Notes: a model not told the origin generated them from the sequence alone. Shown: positions 29,191 through 42,088, counted from the first letter of the stretch. The stretch is 64,000 nt of DNA from an uncultured bacterium (GCA_903937035.1 CAIZXS010000005.1:62746-126745); one strand, 5' to 3'. Numbers and translations are program-made.

Positions 29191-29213
29191 TATAAAACAG
29201 ACAGCCCGCCAAA

Positions 29214-29385
29214 ATCCACCTCACCCTTTTACCTTCAAGCCGTTGAAGGTAAAATCTCCTTAGCAAGGAGAGGGGACGGAACGCAGAGATGTTGGGTGTA
29301 TTTATGGTGATTTTAGAATGGAAAGATGCTGAAGTAGGCCTTCTCCTTATCAAGGAGAAGGTGGTCGAAGACCGGATGAGGTGAG
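29214..29385. repeat. Repeat family B, copy 1 (extended, opposite orientation to copies 2 and 3)
   Basis: atccacctcaccc ... ctccttagcaaggagagg ... ggccttctccttatcaaggagaaggtggtcgaagaccggatgaggtg, the reverse complement of the B3 consensus plus extra hairpin accttcaagccgttgaaggt. Confidence 0.65.
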
Positions 29386-29386
29386 T

Positions 29387-30325
29387 TTACTTCTGACACC
29401 CCGCGCAGTAAAATACACTCCTTTGCGCCATCTTTTTACGCAAAACTAATCCACCGCATTTGGCAGGACAAGGCAATTTATCTCGACGATAAACTTTAAG
29501 CATTTCTTGAAAATGTCCCGGTGCGCCGTCTGAATCGCGATAATCACTGTCCGATGTTCCGCGCATTTTGATGGCGAGCTTTAGAATTTTTTTTGTTGCA
29601 AGAAAGATTTTTTTTCGTTCAACTTTTTCGAGACTTTCATTTTTGCGCTCCGGCAGAACGCCAGCAGTAAAAAGAATTTCACTGCGATAGATGTTGCCGA
29701 TGCCCGAGACGATGCTTTGGTCGAGAAGAAAAATGCCAATGAGCATTTTTGGTTTTGCATCCAATAGTGCGTTAAATTTAGCGAGAGTGAAATCGGTGCT
29801 CATAGCATCAATCCCAATCTTTTTTTCCGCTAAATATTTTTCGAGCGCTTTGGTTTCCAAGAGTCGCATCGTGGCAAATTTCCGCAAATCAGAAAATTCC
29901 AGAGTCCTATTCTTATTCAAATACCAAATGTGATGAATATATTGATTAACTTTGTCGTCGAAGAAACTCACCTCATCCGCCCTACAGGCACCTTCTCCTT
30001 GGTAAGGAGAGGGGCTTTTTGTATTTTGTTCCCTCTTCTTACTGAGGAGATGGTTAGGGTGAGGTGGATTTGACTTCACGAGCAAATGCCCAGTCATCCT
30101 CAGATGAATATGCAAAGACTTTCCGCCAGAAAGATTGAGAAATATATTTTTTCCCACTCGCTCAGCCAAAAGAATTTTTTTGTTTTTCATCTCACGCTTA
30201 AATTTTTCCAAAACCGTACCTTTAATGGCAGATGGAAAATCAGACCAGAATTTTGTAATGGTAGCGCCTTTAATTTTCTTATTCAAATCCGCCACAACTG
30301 TTTCAACCTCAGGTAGTTCGGGCAT
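29387..30325 (-). CDS. mutM: Formamidopyrimidine-DNA glycosylase (Fpg/MutM) carrying an in-frame ~34-aa insertion derived from repeat family B
   Basis: 312 aa. MPELPEVETV N-terminus (catalytic Pro2, Glu3), H2TH region and C-terminal zinc finger CPAKCGG...CAGCQK. Residues ~83-116 (VKSNPPHPNHLLSKKREQNTKSPSPYQGEGACRA) are encoded by the repeat B copy. Confidence 0.8.
   Translation of the reverse strand: MPELPEVETVVADLNKKIKGATITKFWSDFPSAIKGTVLEKFKREMKNKKILLAERVGKNIFLNLSGGKSLHIHLRMTGHLLVKSNPPHPNHLLSKKREQNTKSPSPYQGEGACRADEVSFFDDKVNQYIHHIWYLNKNRTLEFSDLRKFATMRLLETKALEKYLAEKKIGIDAMSTDFTLAKFNALLDAKPKMLIGIFLLDQSIVSGIGNIYRSEILFTAGVLPERKNESLEKVERKKIFLATKKILKLAIKMRGTSDSDYRDSDGAPGHFQEMLKVYRRDKLPCPAKCGGLVLRKKMAQRSVFYCAGCQK
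29968..30068. repeat. Repeat family B, copy 2 (inside the fpg coding sequence, in frame)
   Basis: cacctcatccgccctacaggcaccttctccttggtaaggagaggggc...ccctcttcttactgaggagatggttagggtgaggtgga, with terminal inverted repeats cacctca/tgaggtgg and two internal palindromes. Confidence 0.7.
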
Positions 30326-30329
30326 AAAT

Positions 30330-31094
30330 TTAGCTTAATTGATTATTCAACTCTGGCGATTTGCTTGGAATCATATGCCACATCGTCCTGTGGATGCTCA
30401 AAAGGCTTTCATAAATCTTCTGGCTTTCGATAATTAGTCCAAACTGTTCTTCGAAAGACATGATGCCAACTTTATTATATCCATAAAGATTGATGCTGAC
30501 TGTAATTTTGAAAAATTCTGAATTGACCGCCTTGAACCGGCGGAATTGTACAGTATTCTTTTTGGCAATTTCTTTGAATTTTTCGGTGTCTGGATGGAGA
30601 CTATTGACCCAGACCTTATTCTTTATTCGAATAGGGATGTAAATATCATCAACCCATTTGGCATCAAAATTTGAGAGCCATGTTTCTGAATACCAAGAGT
30701 ATGTCTCTTTGACCGAGCTATTGGCGATAGCCCTAAATACCTCCTTGATTCCTTCTTCCCCTTCAAAAAAGCGAATGATTGGCTTTTTATCAATCAAGTT
30801 GGTGATGGAAAGCAGTTGTGGCATTAGTTTATCGACTGCTTCCATTTTTTCTACCAGCGTATGTTTAATTTTCTTAGGATTTTCGGCGTAGTATATTGAC
30901 TTCCCTTTCTTTTTATAGTGGCTAACCAGCCCCTTCTTGCCCAGTGAGGTCAAAACTAAATAGACCGTGGTTCTTTTGACTCCTGATTTTCTCGATAAGC
31001 GTTCGACGCTGGTCTCTCCTAGTTCCAAAGCGGCCAAATAGACTTTGGCCTCGTTGGCGCTGAGATCTAGCTTTTCTAGTTCATTAAAAAGCAT
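30330..31094 (-). CDS. TrmB-family transcriptional regulator (paralog 1 of 3)
   Basis: 254 aa. N-terminal wHTH LDLSANEAKVYLAALELGETSVERLSRKSGVKRTTVYLVL typical of TrmB. C-terminal effector domain. Confidence 0.6.
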   Translation of the reverse strand: MLFNELEKLDLSANEAKVYLAALELGETSVERLSRKSGVKRTTVYLVLTSLGKKGLVSHYKKKGKSIYYAENPKKIKHTLVEKMEAVDKLMPQLLSITNLIDKKPIIRFFEGEEGIKEVFRAIANSSVKETYSWYSETWLSNFDAKWVDDIYIPIRIKNKVWVNSLHPDTEKFKEIAKKNTVQFRRFKAVNSEFFKITVSINLYGYNKVGIMSFEEQFGLIIESQKIYESLLSIHRTMWHMIPSKSPELNNQLS

Positions 31095-31308
31095 AATTTG
31101 ATTTTATTGTTTATTTTGTCATCAAAAATGACAACAAATATAGTCTAGCATAGAGGCTTAATTGAAGCAAGTATAGTGCTATAGGAAAAGAGTATATCCA
31201 TAATCTATGGACAATTTAACAATTTTCTAGTATACTACGCTGTTAGGATAAATTGTCCAAAGGATCCAGATAAAATCTTAGCCAAAATAATTATTAAGCC
31301 AAAAACCT

Positions 31309-31509
31309 ATGCAAATGATCTTGAACAGCGGAATGCGGATTGATGATCCTCCGGATATGTCGGAAAAAACCAGAAAATATCTTAATCAGTTCTGGCACTT
31401 TCCTTCCAAGGAGGATGTGATAAAAGAAAAAGATAAGCACTATAACTTTGAATGCAAGAGAGAATGGCAAAGAAGAGATGATCAGACTGAAAATGAAATT
31501 AATCCGTAG
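31309..31509 (+). CDS. Conserved small protein (MSEKTRKYLNQFWHFPSKED family), paralog 1
   Basis: 66 aa. 52 of 66 residues align with ORF 33704..33907, including identical MSEKTRKYLNQFW.FPSKE. Conserved upstream context taagcNaaaaaccNatg. Confidence 0.5.
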   Translation: MQMILNSGMRIDDPPDMSEKTRKYLNQFWHFPSKEDVIKEKDKHYNFECKREWQRRDDQTENEINP

Positions 31510-31958
31510 ATTCTAGTGGAAGATAGAAAGCACTTCTGTCTTCCCTAGAGTTTATCTGGGTCTAGATGGCTCGCAGTTACTTAAAAACAGAATAATTCGA
31601 CCAAGGCTCGGATTTGCATAGTGCGGATTCATTTGGGAGTTATTTTGGCTGAGAAAACATTATCGCCTGTATCGGTGGGATAGAAATGGAGCAGGGGGAA
31701 AATGGGAAACAGAGAGGATGTGAGTAGGATGAATAGTCCAGAGTATTCAGCTTACTGTAGTTATTGGGTTAATTCTAATAACTCTTATTCAAAGAAAAGT
31801 AATAATAAGGACGAAGAGCCATGGCACCTGAGGGGCTATGATAGGGATGACCCCTATACGCGTCACCTCAAGGGGGAGGATTAATAACAGGCTTGAGGCA
31901 ATCAAGTGAGAATCATCACAATTTATTCGTTCCATTTAATTAATATAAGGAGGTGGTC

Positions 31959-32477
31959 ATGAAAAAAATGAAAATTCTTATTGTTGATGACAAGAAAGAG
32001 AATATTACCGCCGCAAAAGTTGCTGCGGAAAAGTTTGGTCTTTGCGATGTTACGTATGCCTCTAGTGCCAAAGAAGTGATGGAGATTATCGTGACAGTGT
32101 ATGAAACCGAAAAAACTTTTTTTGATCTCGTGATTAGCGATCTTGAGATGGAGGAAGAAGAAAGTGGGATGATGGTTATGATTAAAAGCGCTGAATATCT
32201 TGCGCTGGCCATTATTGTTACTGGACGGGAAAAGGGAGGGCACGGTCACGGACCAAGCACGAAAATTCAACCGACGGGAAGGGTGGTTGATGGTAGAAAA
32301 GATGATTGTTGTGTTTGGGAAAAGGTTTTTCATGAAATCGAGAAAACCTGCACAGAAGAGCCCTATAAGCAAATTCTTGAATCGCTACAAAGCTACAAGA
32401 AATTCGTCACCAGGCCGTCTAGCGAAATTGGCAAGCTGGTGTTGACCGATTATGGCGTATACTTCAAGCGCTATTAG
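31959..32477 (+). CDS. Orphan response regulator receiver domain protein with uncharacterised C-terminal extension
   Basis: MKKMKILIVDDKKEN...FDLVISDLEM (REC domain acidic pocket and phospho-acceptor Asp). SD taaggagg 5 nt upstream of ATG 31959. Confidence 0.55.
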   Translation: MKKMKILIVDDKKENITAAKVAAEKFGLCDVTYASSAKEVMEIIVTVYETEKTFFDLVISDLEMEEEESGMMVMIKSAEYLALAIIVTGREKGGHGHGPSTKIQPTGRVVDGRKDDCCVWEKVFHEIEKTCTEEPYKQILESLQSYKKFVTRPSSEIGKLVLTDYGVYFKRY

Positions 32478-32549
32478 AATCTACGAAGAATACGATTTTT
32501 AAAAGGGAACCGTCCATCACGACCGTTCCCTTTTTTCTATGTTCAAAAT

Positions 32550-33296
32550 CTATTTTTTTGCCATCTTCCAAAGTAAATCAAAATAGGATAGATAGGATTT
32601 GCGAAAATCTTCGTTTTTTATTTCAATGCAAAACATATCTTCACCACTGCCTGTGCCATAGGAATTGAGGGTGATGGAATCGTGCCAGATGTCAAAAGAT
32701 GTCGGTGAGGAATAGCCTTCCGGCAAAAAGCGATATTCCGAATTGGCGCGTTTCACGAGCTTCGCTTCTTCGGAGCCGATATTGCCAAAAATCAGCCTTG
32801 TTTTAATATTTTTTTTCGTGCGGATGCGATTGCTTCTTTCAAATACGCCGGATTTCTGCATCAATTCTTTGAACCGCATTGCTGCGCCAGTGACAACCAG
32901 ATATTCAGAATTGATTGGCATTAAATCATCTTTTCGCATAATCAATTCGCGATAAGCTTTTGCGCCTTCATAGATCCTGATTTCTTGGCCTTTCTTCTGG
33001 CCGACCAATTTTGCATTGATTTCTTCCATCAAATTCTTAGCCACAACTTCTTGTTGCCTAATGTTATCCAAAATATTTTGCGGATTGGCGATGCGAAAAA
33101 CCAAGCGGTTATTTTTGGTGGTTTTTAGCACCATTTTTTTATTCTCGAGTCCATCCAGCGCGTCATAGGCAACTTGTCGATGCATTCCTAGTTTTTTGAT
33201 TAAGGGGCCAACCGTATTTTCGCCCAATTCTAAAAGCGCATTATAGATTTTAATCTCATTGGGTGTGAGTCCAAGTTGTTTTAGTTCGTTTTCCAT
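32550..33296 (-). CDS. TrmB-family transcriptional regulator (paralog 2 of 3)
   Basis: 248 aa. LGLTPNEIKIYNALLELGENTVGPLIKKLGMHRQVAYDAL wHTH. C-terminus ends ..YFDLLWKMAKK like paralog 3. Confidence 0.6.
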   Translation of the reverse strand: MENELKQLGLTPNEIKIYNALLELGENTVGPLIKKLGMHRQVAYDALDGLENKKMVLKTTKNNRLVFRIANPQNILDNIRQQEVVAKNLMEEINAKLVGQKKGQEIRIYEGAKAYRELIMRKDDLMPINSEYLVVTGAAMRFKELMQKSGVFERSNRIRTKKNIKTRLIFGNIGSEEAKLVKRANSEYRFLPEGYSSPTSFDIWHDSITLNSYGTGSGEDMFCIEIKNEDFRKSYLSYFDLLWKMAKK

Positions 33297-33310
33297 AGAT
33301 TTTAATTAAA

Positions 33311-33414
33311 TCCACCTCATCCGGCCTACGGCCACCTTCTCCTTGGTAAGGAGAAGGGCTCTTTTTGCATTCGTTTCCTCTCCTTACTAAGGAGAGGGCT
33401 AGGGTGAGGTGGAT
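33311..33414. repeat. Repeat family B, copy 3 (intergenic)
   Basis: tccacctcatccggcctacggccaccttctccttggtaaggagaagggc...cctctccttactaaggagagggctagggtgaggtgga. Terminal inverted repeats plus two internal perfect palindromes (ccttctcctt-ggt-aaggagaagg and cctctcctta-ct-aaggagagg). Confidence 0.7.
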
Positions 33415-33703
33415 TCTAAAAAAGTCTTATTTAATTATCATCACCCCAAAACTGACCATATTTCAAAAATCCCTTATTCTGGCTTAATTATACATCAGTT
33501 TAAAACTTATGTCAACATCGTCGCAATAATACTGTTGACAATAATCGATTTATCTGGTAAGCTTTTGAGTCAAGTTGAGAGAGGGCTCTCGAGGAGACAG
33601 GGTAATTTAACCTTATTGTTGAGTCAAGATATTCAAAATAAGCCTTAAAAAGGGCATATGTGAATAGAGAAGCTTTACAATGCTAATCTTTAAGCTAAAA
33701 ACC

Positions 33704-33907
33704 ATGAAAATGCTCTTAAATAATGGAAGTGTAATCAATAATGCTCCAATTATGTCAGAAAAGACCAGAAAATATCTTAATCAGTTTTGGCGCTTTCCTT
33801 CCAAAGAAGAAACTGAAAAAGAGAAGGAGAAATATTATATCGTTGAATGTAGTAAAAAGTCGCAAACAACAGATGAATTTGTAGTTGAGCATGATATCTG
33901 CATATAG
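33704..33907 (+). CDS. Conserved small protein (MSEKTRKYLNQFWRFPSKEE family), paralog 2
   Basis: Aligned start MKMLLNNG matches MQMILNSG of paralog 1. The ORF track starts 8 codons earlier at 33680. Confidence 0.5.
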   Translation: MKMLLNNGSVINNAPIMSEKTRKYLNQFWRFPSKEETEKEKEKYYIVECSKKSQTTDEFVVEHDICI

Positions 33908-34008
33908 GTTCCAGTCGAAGACAGAAAAAGCTTCTGTCTTCCCTGGAGTTTATCTAAATTCTTAGGTAGCTCGTAGTTTTTGAACATTTAAAATTGGAGG
34001 AATGAAGA

Positions 34009-34572
34009 ATGCAGATTAAATCAGTAGGTTTCTTCGGCGGCACGAACCTGCAGGATGGTTCGGTGGGGTATCTAATCCTTGAAGACTTGGGGAAGCAGCT
34101 GGCGCTTATCGGAATTGAAGTAATAACTGGCGCGCTCAGTGGCGCCATGGAAGCGCCGGCAAAAGGTGCAACTTCTGTTGAAAACGGAAAGGCCAGAGGG
34201 TATACCTTTCTGGGACTGGGTTGCAACAAGTATATTAATGAGCCGGTTGATTGTTCCACTTTCTGCGGGGAGGCCCTGGTAATGGAGTTGCAGTACGGAG
34301 TTCGCTTAGGGTACCTACTCTCCTCTGATGCATTTGTTGTCACAGAGGGAAACGCGGGGACATTGGTTGAGGTCATGGCCATCATGAACTTTAACTCTCG
34401 GGGCTGGAAGCCCCAAAAAAAAGTGGCCTTCATTGACCCTAGTGGGAATTGGACTAAAACACTTAACATGCTCAAGGAGAATGGTTTTATCTCTGAGAGC
34501 GCGTTGTTGCCCGTTAAAATTTTTGAAAGTTCTAAGATTCAGGAGATTATCAACTGGATTTGCGAGAAGTAA
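34009..34572 (+). CDS. LOG/TIGR00730-like Rossmann-fold protein (lysine-decarboxylase-like family), noticeably GC-richer than flanks
   Basis: 187 aa. ITGALSGAMEAPAKGA (GGG-x-G-x-M-like loop) and VVTEGNAGTLVEVMAI (PGG-x-GT-x-EE-like motif). aggaatgaagaatg SD-like sequence upstream. Confidence 0.45.
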   Translation: MQIKSVGFFGGTNLQDGSVGYLILEDLGKQLALIGIEVITGALSGAMEAPAKGATSVENGKARGYTFLGLGCNKYINEPVDCSTFCGEALVMELQYGVRLGYLLSSDAFVVTEGNAGTLVEVMAIMNFNSRGWKPQKKVAFIDPSGNWTKTLNMLKENGFISESALLPVKIFESSKIQEIINWICEK

Positions 34573-34701
34573 ATAATTGTTCTTTTTGAAAGGAGGTGAT
34601 CGTAGAGTTGAAGTCTTTGATTGAACTAATCAAAGACTTCCTCACACTAGAGCTTGAAAAAATCGAGCTTTGATATGAGTTAATAATAAATTTAAATAAT
34701 T

Positions 34702-36108
34702 ATGAAAAAATTACACAGAAAGTCACCAAATAGCCATCTTTTCACTGAAGAGGATTTCCACTTGTGCGAGCTGACACAAACGTTTAGCGTCAGTAATATT
34801 TGGCTGGAAAAAGGCATGCAAAATCAGATTGCAACTTATGATTTAATGATTCGCGATATGCCGAAAAATAGGAGTTTTTTTGTGGCAAGCGGACTGGAAG
34901 AATTGGTCAGTCATGTTTTGAAAAATCGCTATTCCAAGGAGGATATTCGATACCTGCAAAAATTGAAAGTGATCACGCCAAAATTTGCCGCGTACCTGAA
35001 AAAGTTTAAATTTAGCGGAGACATTTGGGCGATGCCGGAAGGAACTATTTTTTTCCCCGGCGAACCGATTGTGCGCATTACCGGACCAATCATTGAGGGG
35101 AATATTATGACCATTCTTCTCATCAATTCGATTGTCAGTAATACTATTTTTACTTCTAAGGTAATCCGACCGCTTATTGCAGCTCAAGGTCGATTAGTGA
35201 TTGGCCCGGGGATGCTGCGAGCACAAAGTTTTGAGTCTGGCATGAAAGCCAGTCGCGCGTCATATATCTGTGGACTAGCACAAAATCTTATGGCACTTCA
35301 CAGGAAATATAATCTTAGGCAGTCTGCGCCAATGGCCTATTCCTATCATGCGTTCATGAAATCTTTTGATGGTGAAATTGAAGCCATGCGAGCAATGACC
35401 AACATCTTCCCAGCTGCCTATTTCATGGTGGATACTTATGATTTTGATGAGGGACTCAAAAATGCAATTAAGGTTGCCAAGGAATTGGAAATGCGTGGTA
35501 AACGACTAGCGGGGATAACGATTGATAGCGGAGATTTGGTTGCGCTTTCCAAAAAAGTCCGTCGCGAGCTTAATCGACATGGCTTGCAGTATGTCAAAAT
35601 TTCGGTGGCCAGCAATTTGGATGAGTATAAAATTGCCAAAATGATGAAGCAGGGAATTGCAGCCGATAGTTTTCTTTGTCAGACGGAAATGATTACCGTA
35701 ACAGATGAACCAAAATTGGAAGCTATTTTCAAGCTGGCCGAAATTCGTGATGGCAAAACAATTAAGCATATGGCCAAATTGACCCCAGGGAAATTATCAC
35801 TTCCCGGTCGAAAGCAAGTTTATCGGATCTATGACAAAAAAGGCAAATTTAAAAAAGATATCATCGGATTAGAAAATGAAAAAAATGGTGGCGTTCCGCT
35901 ACTATTGCCAATAATTCAAAAAGGCAAAGTAGCCTATAAATTCCCAACATTAGATGAAATCGCCCTGCACGTCAAAAACCAGATTCAGAAACTTCCTGAA
36001 AACTTGTTGGATGTGACGAAGACGAATCCGTATGAAGTGGGAATTAGTAGGAATGTTTTGAAAATATTGGATGATCTGAGAAAAAAACATCAAAGTCATA
36101 ATGGATAG
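34702..36108 (+). CDS. pncB: Nicotinate phosphoribosyltransferase
   Basis: 468 aa. FMVDTYDFDEG and GITIDSGDLVALS motifs of the NAPRTase family. Confidence 0.75.
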   Translation: MKKLHRKSPNSHLFTEEDFHLCELTQTFSVSNIWLEKGMQNQIATYDLMIRDMPKNRSFFVASGLEELVSHVLKNRYSKEDIRYLQKLKVITPKFAAYLKKFKFSGDIWAMPEGTIFFPGEPIVRITGPIIEGNIMTILLINSIVSNTIFTSKVIRPLIAAQGRLVIGPGMLRAQSFESGMKASRASYICGLAQNLMALHRKYNLRQSAPMAYSYHAFMKSFDGEIEAMRAMTNIFPAAYFMVDTYDFDEGLKNAIKVAKELEMRGKRLAGITIDSGDLVALSKKVRRELNRHGLQYVKISVASNLDEYKIAKMMKQGIAADSFLCQTEMITVTDEPKLEAIFKLAEIRDGKTIKHMAKLTPGKLSLPGRKQVYRIYDKKGKFKKDIIGLENEKNGGVPLLLPIIQKGKVAYKFPTLDEIALHVKNQIQKLPENLLDVTKTNPYEVGISRNVLKILDDLRKKHQSHNG

Positions 36109-40144: not shown

Positions 40145-40345
40145 CTATTCGCGTTCTTCAATAAATTCTTCTCCTGTCTCCGGGTCGACTCTGTCCAGAT
40201 ATTCTTGCTCTCTTTGTTGTTCTAGGGTAAATCCCTGAGCTTGTTTTTCGCGTAGTTGCGCTAAATCTTCCTCAGTTTTCTTTCTAGCTTTTTCTTCTAG
40301 TTGTTTTCTGACTTCGTCAGCTGAGGGCATTGATAATTCTCCCAT
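40145..40345 (-). CDS. Small acidic coiled-coil protein, hypothetical
   Basis: 66 aa (or 61 aa from the second Met, which has a ggaga SD 8 nt upstream). Same strand as, and immediately downstream of, TrmB paralog 3. Confidence 0.3.
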   Translation of the reverse strand: MGELSMPSADEVRKQLEEKARKKTEEDLAQLREKQAQGFTLEQQREQEYLDRVDPETGEEFIEERE

Positions 40346-40469: not shown

Positions 40470-41279
40470 CTATGTAGGTGCCATCTTCCACAACGCTTCA
40501 AACCAAGCACGGTTCATCCCATAGATATTTTTGTCTTCGATGAGGATGGAGATGGTATTGCTTTTGTCAAAAATCTGGTAGGAAATTTTGCCGTCATAAA
40601 TTTGGATGTTGGATTTGAACGGATCAATAAGATCATTGAGATAGCGGATTTCTGTGATCGCGTCATATTTATCATCCGACGTGCCAAAGGTAATTTCCGG
40701 TTTTTTCCCCGCGCGTAGAATGCGTTTTTTGAGGCCTTTATATTTTCTTTTTCTTTTATACTCATCATTGATTGCCTTAAACTTTTCTTCCGTTTGCATG
40801 GCGTTGGTGTTTATGAAAAGCAAAATTTCTGTTTTGGAGGTGAGGGTATCGTCGAGAATTTTTTGCATCCCTTCTTCACCTTCATAGAATTTCACCCCAG
40901 GTTTATTGAGCGTAATGTTATAGCTGGAAATGAGACTGGGCAGAGTATCTTCAAAAGTTTTTTTATCTTGATTGAGTTCAGCTTCTTTGTTCTCCAGAAT
41001 TTTCTCCAAATTACGCGGATGAGTCGCGCGCCACTTCGCCACTTCTTTTTCCTTTTCGATTTTTTCCACCAGATTTAGCGCAAGCAGTTCTTCCAGGGCT
41101 TTATAGGCCACTCCGCGTGGATGGTTAGCAATCTTTGCCACATCGCTGGCCTTCGTTTCGCCATGCTCAAACAAGCAATCCAGCACAGCGGATTGGGTTT
41201 TGGTGAGGCCGAATTTTTGGAGTTGGTCGTTAAACATTAGGTTGTTCGCTTCATGAACCCCGCCTTCTAGCGGGGACAT
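40470..41279 (-). CDS. TrmB-family transcriptional regulator (paralog 3 of 3)
   Basis: 269 aa. FGLTKTQSAVLDCLFEHGETKASDVAKIANHPRGVAYKAL wHTH. C-terminus ..WFEALWKMAPT. Confidence 0.55.
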   Translation of the reverse strand: MSPLEGGVHEANNLMFNDQLQKFGLTKTQSAVLDCLFEHGETKASDVAKIANHPRGVAYKALEELLALNLVEKIEKEKEVAKWRATHPRNLEKILENKEAELNQDKKTFEDTLPSLISSYNITLNKPGVKFYEGEEGMQKILDDTLTSKTEILLFINTNAMQTEEKFKAINDEYKRKRKYKGLKKRILRAGKKPEITFGTSDDKYDAITEIRYLNDLIDPFKSNIQIYDGKISYQIFDKSNTISILIEDKNIYGMNRAWFEALWKMAPT

Positions 41280-41302
41280 ACGAATTAGTATTCGCCATGG
41301 AC

Positions 41303-41340
41303 AGGAGCTGAGCTTCTGGAGCTCCAGAAGCTCAGCTCCT
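41303..41340. promoter_or_regulatory. Perfect 19+19 bp palindrome immediately upstream of TrmB paralog 3 (candidate operator)
   Basis: aggagctgagcttctggagc|gctccagaagctcagctcct. No T run on either side, so it is unlikely to be an intrinsic terminator. Confidence 0.4.
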
Positions 41341-41386
41341 GTTTCGCTAGCTATTATTTAAGGTGCCAAATTGGAACCTTAGAAAT

Positions 41387-42088
41387 TTAATCCTTTTCTA
41401 TAGTATTGTCATAAAATCCAATTCTCTTTTTTGGCTCAGTATCTTCTTTCATCAGCCGCGCAATCATTTGAAAAACAACCTTGAAACTCTTGTCATATTT
41501 ATTTTCCATCAGCTCAACTTTTTCACGCAGTTGCTTGTGAGTGGACAAAATCTCTCGCAGTTTTACAAAAGTCCGCACAATTTGGATACTAACCGCCACC
41601 GCGCGCTTGCTTTTGAGAACGGCAGAAAGCATCGCGACGCCTTGCTCGGTGAAAACATAGGGAGCATATTTCAGATGTTGTCCACGACCTTTCTTCAAGG
41701 TCACAAATTGTGACCTTGAAGATTTGTTATTGTTTAAGATTCCATTTTGGAATCTTAAAGATTTTTTGTCACTTGAGGTCACAAATTGTGACTGCAAGTT
41801 TTCATCGTTCAAGGTGCCATTTTGGTACCTTGAAAATGCGGTAGCCTCTTTTTCACTTAATTGAAACATGAAATCTTTTGGAAATCGGTCAATATTTCTT
41901 TTAACAGCTTTATTTAAATTTCCTGTGATTACGCCATAAAGTTCAGCTAAATCTCGGTCAAACATCACCTTTTCCCCGCGAATAAAGTAAATTTGGCTCA
42001 TTATGCGTTCATCGGGGACTGCACTTGAGGTTCCATTTTGGAAGCTCAAGTTTTCTTTCTTGGCCATATTTTTTGATTTTTTAGACAT
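41387..42088 (-). CDS. ORF6N-domain protein (phage anti-repressor/Rha-like family) with internal in-frame duplication
   Basis: 233 aa. IYFIRGEKVMFDRDLAELYGVITGNLNKAVKRNIDRFPKDFMFQLSEKE is the ORF6N N-domain. C-terminal region has YAPYVFTEQGVAMLSAVLKSKRAV. There is an extra ~38-aa insert with FQNG/SQFVT repeats. Confidence 0.6.
   Translation of the reverse strand: MSKKSKNMAKKENLSFQNGTSSAVPDERIMSQIYFIRGEKVMFDRDLAELYGVITGNLNKAVKRNIDRFPKDFMFQLSEKEATAFSRYQNGTLNDENLQSQFVTSSDKKSLRFQNGILNNNKSSRSQFVTLKKGRGQHLKYAPYVFTEQGVAMLSAVLKSKRAVAVSIQIVRTFVKLREILSTHKQLREKVELMENKYDKSFKVVFQMIARLMKEDTEPKKRIGFYDNTIEKD

Follow-up and report, generated by a model that had tools for sequence, protein, structure and literature searches.

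Recurrent pairing of TrmB-family regulators with an orphan small-protein gene and covarying RNA hairpins in Moraniibacteria and close relatives

The closest described relatives of the regulators considered here are TrmBL2 of Thermococcus/Pyrococcus (PDB 5BOX and 5BPD) and TrmB (PDB 3QPH and 2F5T), which share with them an N-terminal winged helix (PF01978), a long helix and a C-terminal α/β domain. TrmBL2 is a global chromatin-like repressor, a behaviour that is not indicated for the regulators described below. Unlike these archaeal proteins, to which they are 16–17% identical, the present regulators are bacterial, from the Candidate Phyla Radiation (CPR), and form a set of several divergent paralogs, two of which (TrmB1 and TrmB2) each adjoin a small-protein operon. 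Here we describe the locus of TrmB1 and TrmB2 in a 64,000-nucleotide stretch of DNA from an uncultured bacterium (GCA_903937035.1 CAIZXS010000005.1:62746-126745), the whole of which is called the window. Back to back with each regulator gene lies a small gene, S1 or S2, which runs at its stop codon into a pair of predicted RNA hairpins, HP1 and HP2; leader, small open reading frame (ORF) and hairpins are together referred to as the cassette. The cassette is a real, lineage-specific regulatory arrangement that is present in multiple copies. We lean, with confidence only a little above even, towards the view that TrmBL2-like repressors each stand divergent from an operon in which the orphan small protein comes first and is followed by sense-strand hairpins that probably attenuate readthrough or stabilise the proximal mRNA.

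Comparison with other genomes places the window in Candidatus Moraniibacteriota (CPR/Patescibacteria). The S1 protein is 100% identical to its counterpart in the Candidatus Moraniibacteriota metagenome-assembled genome ELA543 (JBAXPY01), with flanking DNA about 89–92% identical, and the exact TrmB1 protein was found on contigs of several metagenomes with the gene order unchanged. The small gene and its neighbours were inspected at loci L006–L018 and L027–L030 from genomes and metagenomes and at the distant loci L019 and L020, and a metagenome scan for further cassettes gave at least five loci. A literature search for TrmB together with Patescibacteria or Candidate Phyla Radiation found nothing.

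The small ORF is truly coding and under purifying selection. In 15 copies, 1358, 849 and 2428 differences fell on codon positions 1, 2 and 3, respectively, and the ratio of nonsynonymous to synonymous divergence (pN/pS) lay between 0.04 and 0.33, by which a non-coding or chance ORF was ruled out; pS between S1 and S2 is 0.66. For S2, a 75-aa reading from 33680 was dropped, its upstream ATG being kept in no homolog. A word-indexed profile search gave 43 clusters, each at E<1e-16 and with no annotation beyond hypothetical, and an exhaustive hidden Markov model (HMM) search of 1.84 billion protein representatives returned 10 matches, solely the family itself, whose members all belong to Moraniibacteria or close relatives. 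These are the profile searches that an earlier note on this DNA, written by a model from the sequence alone, had proposed; they led to no known family, and with the homologs in other genomes and the pN/pS values they bear out its description of the small ORFs as a conserved coding family of no evident function. Across 44 sequences conservation extends from Met1 to about Tyr45 (family consensus MKMLLNNGxVIxNAPxMSEKTRKYLxQFWxFPSKEExEKEKEKYY), and the C-terminus is variable. The protein is hydrophilic (grand average of hydropathy −0.8 to −1.6), near neutral in charge and devoid of a signal-like segment. No match was obtained in Pfam, NCBIfam, PHROGs or PADLOC, nor in a PDB profile search (best E=0.61). 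The AlphaFold2 (AF2) model features a small β-hairpin, a short helix and a long helix, and Foldseek with this low-confidence model found no similar fold (best E=1.7). The JGI annotation of one 66-aa member, P0008, reads "type VI protein secretion system component VasK", which is clearly spurious given the size and sequence of this protein.

The most constant feature of the small-protein family is its pairing with TrmB. At every locus examined (more than 20) a divergent TrmB-family gene lies upstream of the small gene, and not even the most distant members, P0046 and P0048 (loci L019 and L020; E ~1e-6), are exceptions. The regulator and small gene, which the earlier note had proposed as a pair on the strength of two modules, are thus conserved together at each of these loci, and, in line with its suggestion to look for further copies, at least three to five small-gene cassettes were counted in each related genome. 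The pairing fails in the reverse direction: the TrmB type of about 245 aa, widespread in Patescibacteria (692 matches), elsewhere adjoins unrelated genes, and among TrmB homologs in other CPR clades the neighbour is an unrelated Cys-rich 64-aa ORF in one locus from Falkowbacteria and a 447-aa gene in a different locus. The pair differs from type II toxin–antitoxin systems in that the two genes are divergent and lie 214–407 nt from each other, with no match to a toxin or defence family, and from Rgg/SHP-type (RRNPP) pairs in that the regulator is a winged helix-turn-helix (wHTH) protein of the TrmB family rather than a tetratricopeptide repeat protein and the small protein is hydrophilic. At one locus (L017, CAYOTC010000003.1) the contig that bears the cassette was assigned to "uncultured Bdellovibrionales", which reflects either mis-binning of a CPR contig or a transfer; there a GIY-YIG-like 84-aa ORF separates the TrmB gene from the small gene, and the HP1/HP2 motif is missing.

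TrmB1, TrmB2 and a third paralog, TrmB3, are the sole TrmB-family genes in the window by a subfamily HMM, and all three exceed the PF01978 cutoff of 25.6 bits. Together with the TrmBL2 profile and Foldseek matches this agrees with the family first assigned to them. TrmB1 and TrmB2 are 32% identical across the N-terminal 116 aa and 23% identical over their full length, no DNA similarity between the two genes was detected by repeat search or alignment, and they are ancient paralogs. The AF2 model of TrmB1 (predicted local distance difference test, pLDDT, 88) matched TrmBL2 best in Foldseek (5BPD, E=5e-12), followed by TrmB (3QPH, E=6e-10; 2F5T, 1.7e-4), the 2F5T match corresponding to the N-subdomain of the TrmB effector domain. 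Positions 8–250 of the regulator profile, its full length, align to residues 11–262 of TrmBL2 5BOX with E=2e-7, whereas the profile match to TrmB 3QPH is confined to the wHTH region (chain residues 7–99) and the Foldseek alignment of TrmB1 with 3QPH covers 239 columns of a 335-residue target. The window regulators comprise 248–269 aa, as compared with about 340 aa for the sugar-sensing TrmB/TrmBL1, and a length of about 250 aa, as in TrmBL2, implies that the sugar-binding subdomain of TrmB is absent. Scores against the NCBIfam equivalogs fall far under their cutoffs (35.8 bits versus 650 for TrmBL1 and 20.6 versus 600 for TrmB), and with the missing subdomain this points to a TrmBL2-like architecture and not to orthologs of the sugar-sensing TrmB. 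All three regulators are too short for a sugar-binding subdomain, and TrmB1 is TrmBL2-like in its modelled fold.

HP1 is a stem of about 19 bp with one bulge, and in 20 of 20 sequences the stop codon of the small gene lies in its base; HP2 has 6 bp. In the alignment of 20 distinct sequences (13 initially) 95% of cells are paired, versus 35–55% with slid partners. Five to six pairs show compensatory double changes, such as UUCUAG/CUAGAG to UUCCAG/CUGGAG in the outer stem of S2, and there are one invariant U-G pair and many G-U variants. A covariance model scored 71–95 bits on the sense strand versus 16–31 bits on the antisense strand and recovered six loci outside its training set; its matches lie solely directly after small-ORF stops, and no further copies were found in the window. 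For S1, HP1/HP2 have a folding free energy of −33.4 kcal/mol, with a z-score of −4.8 on the plus strand versus −1.2 on the minus strand. These data support HP1/HP2 as a covarying, strand-specific RNA structure. Rfam 15 gave no gathering-level match in the window, and at E<=5 only spurious miRNA or Termite-leu matches were obtained between 31100 and 34100, none of them on the hairpins. The small-protein family and the HP1/HP2 motif are both undescribed in the libraries searched. The coordinates of all features are compiled in Table 1.

Table 1. Features of the TrmB1 and TrmB2 modules and of TrmB3, in window coordinates.
Feature	Position	Strand	Evidence
TrmB1, TrmBL2-like winged-helix regulator, 254 aa	30330..31094	-	PF01978 57.2 bits
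Perfect palindrome TTGTCAT-N5-ATGACAA, 22 nt upstream of TrmB1 start, candidate operator	31116..31134	.	sequence reading
S1 operon promoter (putative), TGGACA-17-TATACT	31208..31236	+	-10 and TTGACA-like -35 conserved
Conserved 5' leader, GTTAGGAT...ATCTTAGC inverted repeat then ATTAAGCCAAAAACC before ATG	31237..31308	+	alignment
S1, 66 aa, new orphan family	31309..31509	+	coding signature, pN/pS, homologs
HP1 (~19 bp, base includes stop codon) and HP2 (6 bp), S1 cassette	31509..31568	+	covariation, folding, covariance model
Module b, three-part hairpin	31590..31655	+	RNAalifold, fold z-score
Module c, hairpin (U/C)CGCC-UGUAUC-GG(U/C)GG and GGAG-rich ribosome-binding site before next ORF	31661..31701	+	more than 10 loci
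60-aa ORF, no known family	31702..31884	+	called as gene in L004; 168-222-aa genes at this position in relatives
Receiver-only response-regulator-like gene	31959..32477	+	PF00072 29.8 bits, just under the 30.2 cutoff
Canonical bidirectional intrinsic terminator AAAAGGGAACGGTC...GACCGTTCCCTTTTTT, between receiver gene and TrmB2	32501..32536	.	sequence reading
TrmB2, TrmB-family regulator, 248 aa	32550..33296	-	PF01978 46.0 bits
Back-to-back divergent promoters of TrmB2 and S2 (putative)	33487..33563	.	promoter scan and sequence
S2, 67 aa, S1 paralog, 55% identical	33704..33907	+	homologs, coding signature
HP1 and HP2, S2 cassette	33907..33968	+	covariation, covariance model, folding
Genes downstream of S2: SLOG/LOG-like (34009-34572), NAPRTase (34702-36108)	34009..36108	+	profile matches
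TrmB3, third paralog, no S-family partner	40470..41279	-	PF01978 43.5 bits

The intergenic regions between regulator and small gene hold the putative promoters and candidate operators. Conservation across 13 loci, paralogous or orthologous, includes a TATACT/TATAAT −10 box together with a −35 box resembling TTGACA. In the second module the predicted TrmB2 promoter, on the minus strand, is a perfect TTGACA-17-TATAAT (12/12 match), and that of S2, on the plus strand, reads TTGACA-17-TAAGCT. The inverted repeats that the earlier note had pointed out are present as described (ttgtcatcaaaaatgacaa at 31116–31134 and tgtcaaca-N15-tgttgaca at 33510–33540); its proposal that they are plausible operators fits the first of them, since palindromes specific to the regulator type and with TGTC/GACA cores recur at equivalent positions in related loci, and is weakened for the second module, where the arms of the repeat are −35 boxes. 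The palindrome at 31116–31134 overlaps the putative −35 box of TrmB1, with promoter-like matches on both strands, and is kept in the L018 ortholog with one change. The palindrome adjoining the TrmB start varies with the type of regulator, being TGTCAT/ATGACA in S1-type loci, TGTCCG/CGGACA in L007-type loci and ATGACG/CGTCAT in L015, and these type-specific palindromes fit cognate operators that would serve autoregulation at least. No Shine-Dalgarno sequence precedes the small gene, which instead has the conserved start context ATTAAGC(C/A)AAAAAC, and the leader repeat GTTAAGAT/ATCTTAAC is conserved in sequence.

Every cassette copy is followed by co-directional genes, after gaps of about 100–195 nt that end in a Shine-Dalgarno sequence and in which no promoter was seen; the 101-nt gap after S2 likewise contains no recognisable promoter for the downstream genes. 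The genes themselves differ between loci. The receiver gene after S1 is the probable distal gene of the S1 unit, and receiver genes recur downstream of S cassettes (L012 4073–4417, L015 2356–3423 and L027 4054–4404). A natural variant is provided by the TrmB1 ortholog locus of L018 (4275–4535, orthologous to window 31095–31720), which has the palindrome, the TGGACA-17-TATACT promoter and the leader joined directly to module c and a 168-aa gene, with neither small ORF nor HP1/HP2 nor module b. This arrangement argues for a single promoter shared by the small ORF and the distal genes, and also for a small-ORF segment that can be separated as a module. The small gene appears to head a longer transcription unit as its first cistron. 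In L015, a 135-aa gene was read as receiver-like and is followed by two more small ORFs.

Some copies carry about 120 nt of further conserved structured RNA past HP1/HP2. In S1-type loci the conservation extends about 190 nt past the stop, through module b and then module c. Module b is common to the window S1 locus and to L009, L010, L011, L012, L014 and L016a; RNAalifold gave it 16 pairs, four of them compensatory, and its fold z-score is −2.96. Module c is found upstream of unrelated genes in more than 10 loci, with one compensatory change from C-G to U-A in L015, and may be a shared translational control element. The hairpin with the invariant UGUAUC loop followed by GGUAGAAAUGGAGCAAGGAG was observed in the window and in L012, L013, L014, L015, L018, L024, L025, L027 and L030.

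The two cassettes of the window share DNA over about 290 aligned nt in total, from the "ttaagcc" leader through "gctcg" past the hairpins. The repeats comprise 31302–31481 versus 33697–33876 (180 nt, 73%) and 31507–31557 versus 33905–33955 (51 nt, 84%). The second of these, together with a 3' arm motif that occurs exactly twice in the window versus 0.02 expected, substantiates the shared 3' hairpin reported previously, and the shared start context taagcNaaaaacc(N)atg is present as well, with a 1-nt indel between the copies. The DNA similarity excludes the regulators, so that the "duplicated module" of the earlier note reduces to a cassette of about 300 nt around the small gene. The phylogeny of the cassettes is decoupled from that of the regulators, as judged from pairs of loci: in L016b and L018, which belong to one genome, the regulators share 19% identity, the small proteins 82% and the cassette DNA 80% over 320 nt, whereas in L016a and L010 the regulators are 95% identical and the small proteins 58%, the DNA identity falling from about 90% to 50–78% across the cassette, from its leader to where the 3' structures end. 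We read this decoupling as homologous exchange or gene conversion among paralogous sites. Purifying selection combined with such exchange between loci would keep the cassette of about 300 nt similar.

On the reading that we favour, a TrmBL2-like regulator would be transcribed divergently from a sigma-70-type promoter driving a short operon with the small protein as first cistron, and each TrmB paralog would bind its own type-specific palindrome, repressing itself and the divergent operon. The hairpins in the mRNA would act as a partial terminator, a 3'-end stabiliser or both, and in consequence we propose that the small protein is made in excess over the products of the distal genes; a ribosome that terminates at the stop codon, which is part of the HP1 base, would be expected to melt that hairpin. 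That the small protein is a common effector or adaptor under several different sensors is a guess.

Several observations weigh against parts of this reading. HP1 and HP2 depart from the canonical form of a terminator: a strong stem (−33.4 kcal/mol) is followed by the tail UUUAUCU, as against a terminator criterion of a run of at least 5–8 U, and a terminator scan did not detect them. The terminator at 32501–32536 indicates that this genome uses ordinary T-tract terminators, unlike HP1/HP2. The hairpins are also not conserved in L020, the most distant relative with downstream sequence. The "operator" arms in the second module (TGTCAACA-N15-TGTTGACA, 33510–33540) coincide with two opposed −35 boxes, and in S1-type loci no conserved palindrome overlapping the S promoter was found, the only one lying about 75 nt away near the TrmB1 start. 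The stem of the 5' leader is weak, with no compensatory changes and a fold z-score of 0.03, for which reason the leader is taken to be conserved as sequence and is not claimed as a structure. Confidence in the model of the small protein is low (pLDDT 65.8), and no similar fold was found for it. Finally, co-transcription and the start sites are read from the sequence, and the exchange between loci is drawn from a few identity contrasts.

The small protein could alternatively be a partner of the regulator itself, an anti-repressor or co-repressor in a two-gene feedback switch with a logic like that of SinI/SinR or Cro/CI, which we consider unlikely. The pairing with TrmB even in members at E ~1e-6 fits such a partner, as do the prediction, of mediocre confidence, of mostly one long helix, expected of a protein that folds on its partner, and the lack of a sugar-binding subdomain in the regulators, which would hence need another input. 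On the other hand, small proteins that are 82% identical beside regulators that are 19% identical argue against a specific, co-evolving interface, and the TrmB1 ortholog of L018 persists without the small gene. Comparison of the small protein with TrmB segments gave an hhalign probability of 0.1, by which mimicry of a TrmB segment was also rejected.

It is likewise improbable, in our estimation, that the small ORF is a cis-acting leader, whose translation up to the stop embedded in HP1, or nascent-peptide arrest, sets downstream expression through HP1 as a weak terminator. The invariable position of the stop codon in the base of HP1 and the UUUAUCU that follows are what such a leader would show; all downstream genes run in the direction of the small ORF, with no promoter evident before them, and a start context that is conserved and lacks a Shine-Dalgarno sequence suggests that initiation is under special control. 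Against this, all of the N-terminal 45 residues are conserved, Met1–Gly8 among them, and it is the C-terminus, the place for an arrest motif, that is conserved least. For HP1/HP2 no alternative (antiterminator) pairing was found to be conserved, the downstream genes have no function in common, the protein is retained in distant relatives without the hairpins, and L018 presumably expresses its downstream gene without the ORF.

That the unit of about 300–400 nt (leader, small ORF and hairpins) is a semi-autonomous selfish or mobile element entering the leaders of TrmB-controlled operons is very improbable. It is indeed multi-copy, with a phylogeny decoupled from that of its neighbours, and shows presence/absence polymorphism with clean boundaries; yet it has no terminal repeats, target-site duplications or transposase, was never found away from a TrmB gene and encodes a protein under strong purifying selection, and homologous exchange between paralogous sites is the simpler account. 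A recent segmental duplication of the entire regulator-plus-effector module, as the earlier note had supposed from two adjacent modules of the same layout 2.4 kb apart, is almost certainly wrong, the similarity being limited to the cassette while TrmB1 and TrmB2 are 23% identical with no DNA similarity, pS of S1 versus S2 is as high as 0.66, and each module has its own positional orthologs in other genomes.

The third paralog lies at a separate site. The true start of TrmB3 is probably the ATG at 41237 (MFNDQLQKFGL). Between this start and the stop of an ORF6N gene is a perfect 42-nt palindrome (21+21, 41301–41342); the earlier note had correctly called it perfect and had given its length as 38 bp. 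Its letters, ACAGGAGCTGAGCTTCTGGAG | CTCCAGAAGCTCAGCTCCTGT, are unlike the TGTCA-type palindromes of TrmB1 and TrmB2, and no T-run follows it. The ORF6N-domain gene (41387–42088, minus strand) matches PF10543 with E=1e-31 and the PADLOC defence candidate PDC-S05 with E=9e-54, and contains five internal inverted-repeat units of about 34 nt each (TTAAGgTnCCAttTTGGnAcCTTAA). Co-directional with TrmB3 is an acidic 66-aa ORF of no family (40145–40345, minus strand), with a TATACT box and an A-rich leader lacking a Shine-Dalgarno sequence that is reminiscent of the S-gene leader. The relative L018 lacks both TrmB3 and this ORF, and there polA abuts the ORF6N gene.

A palindromic repeat of about 107 nt resembling a miniature inverted-repeat transposable element (MITE), with the core CCTTCTCCTTGGTAAGGAGAGGG ... 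GGGTGAGGTGGATT, occurs in the window at 29212–29392, 29964–30070 and 33308–33415. One copy lies in frame within the fpg/mutM ORF (29387–30325), where it forms an extra loop (...SPSPYQGEGACRADEVSF...) that is missing from the L009 and L018 orthologs, and a further copy is found in the long stretch 5' of TrmB2. The repeat in fpg/mutM resembles the in-frame palindromic elements of Rickettsia.

CPR/Patescibacteria have tiny genomes and almost no characterised regulation, and the locus offers a defined, testable regulon unit consisting of regulator, palindrome, promoter, small protein and RNA structure. It yields an orphan small-protein family that is clearly under selection and a covariation-supported RNA motif absent from Rfam, and its natural variants, a deletion of the small ORF and swaps of the cassette between regulators, act like genetic experiments. 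Should TrmBL2-like regulators prove to share the small protein as an effector or co-factor, this would help to explain how signals are integrated with few regulators; if not, the locus is an ordinary repressor–operon arrangement with an uncharacterised first gene. More speculatively, and with little weight given to it, the 66-aa protein and structured RNA could be a portable "output cassette" that Moraniibacteria place, through homologous exchange, behind many TrmBL2-like sensors, with an effector that might bind the hairpins or the regulators and so feed back. Diverse signals would then converge on one small effector, in a regulatory architecture that would be new and peculiar to ultra-small CPR bacteria, which have few transcription factors.

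Among known systems, intercistronic stem-loops and leader-ORF attenuators share with the cassette a strong hairpin after the first cistron, a short U-rich stretch and a stop codon in the base of the stem. The cassette differs from attenuators in having neither a canonical U-tract nor a detected alternative structure, in the conservation of the ORF protein along 45 residues and in the absence of a match in Rfam 15. In leader-peptide attenuators conservation is expected only at regulatory codons or in a C-terminal arrest motif, whereas here residues 1–45 are conserved and the C-terminus is variable. The regulators belong to a known family, and a divergent layout of regulator and target is ordinary: classical divergent pairs such as smtB-smtA and the autoregulated MarR-type divergons likewise have a winged-helix repressor gene back to back with a small-gene promoter and palindromes in between. 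Unlike in these pairs, the target is an orphan hydrophilic protein in which neither a metal-binding motif nor any other motif is recognisable, and one target family stands behind several divergent paralogous regulators and appears to exchange between them. This pattern of many regulators and one exchanged cassette is an unusual variant of the divergent pair.

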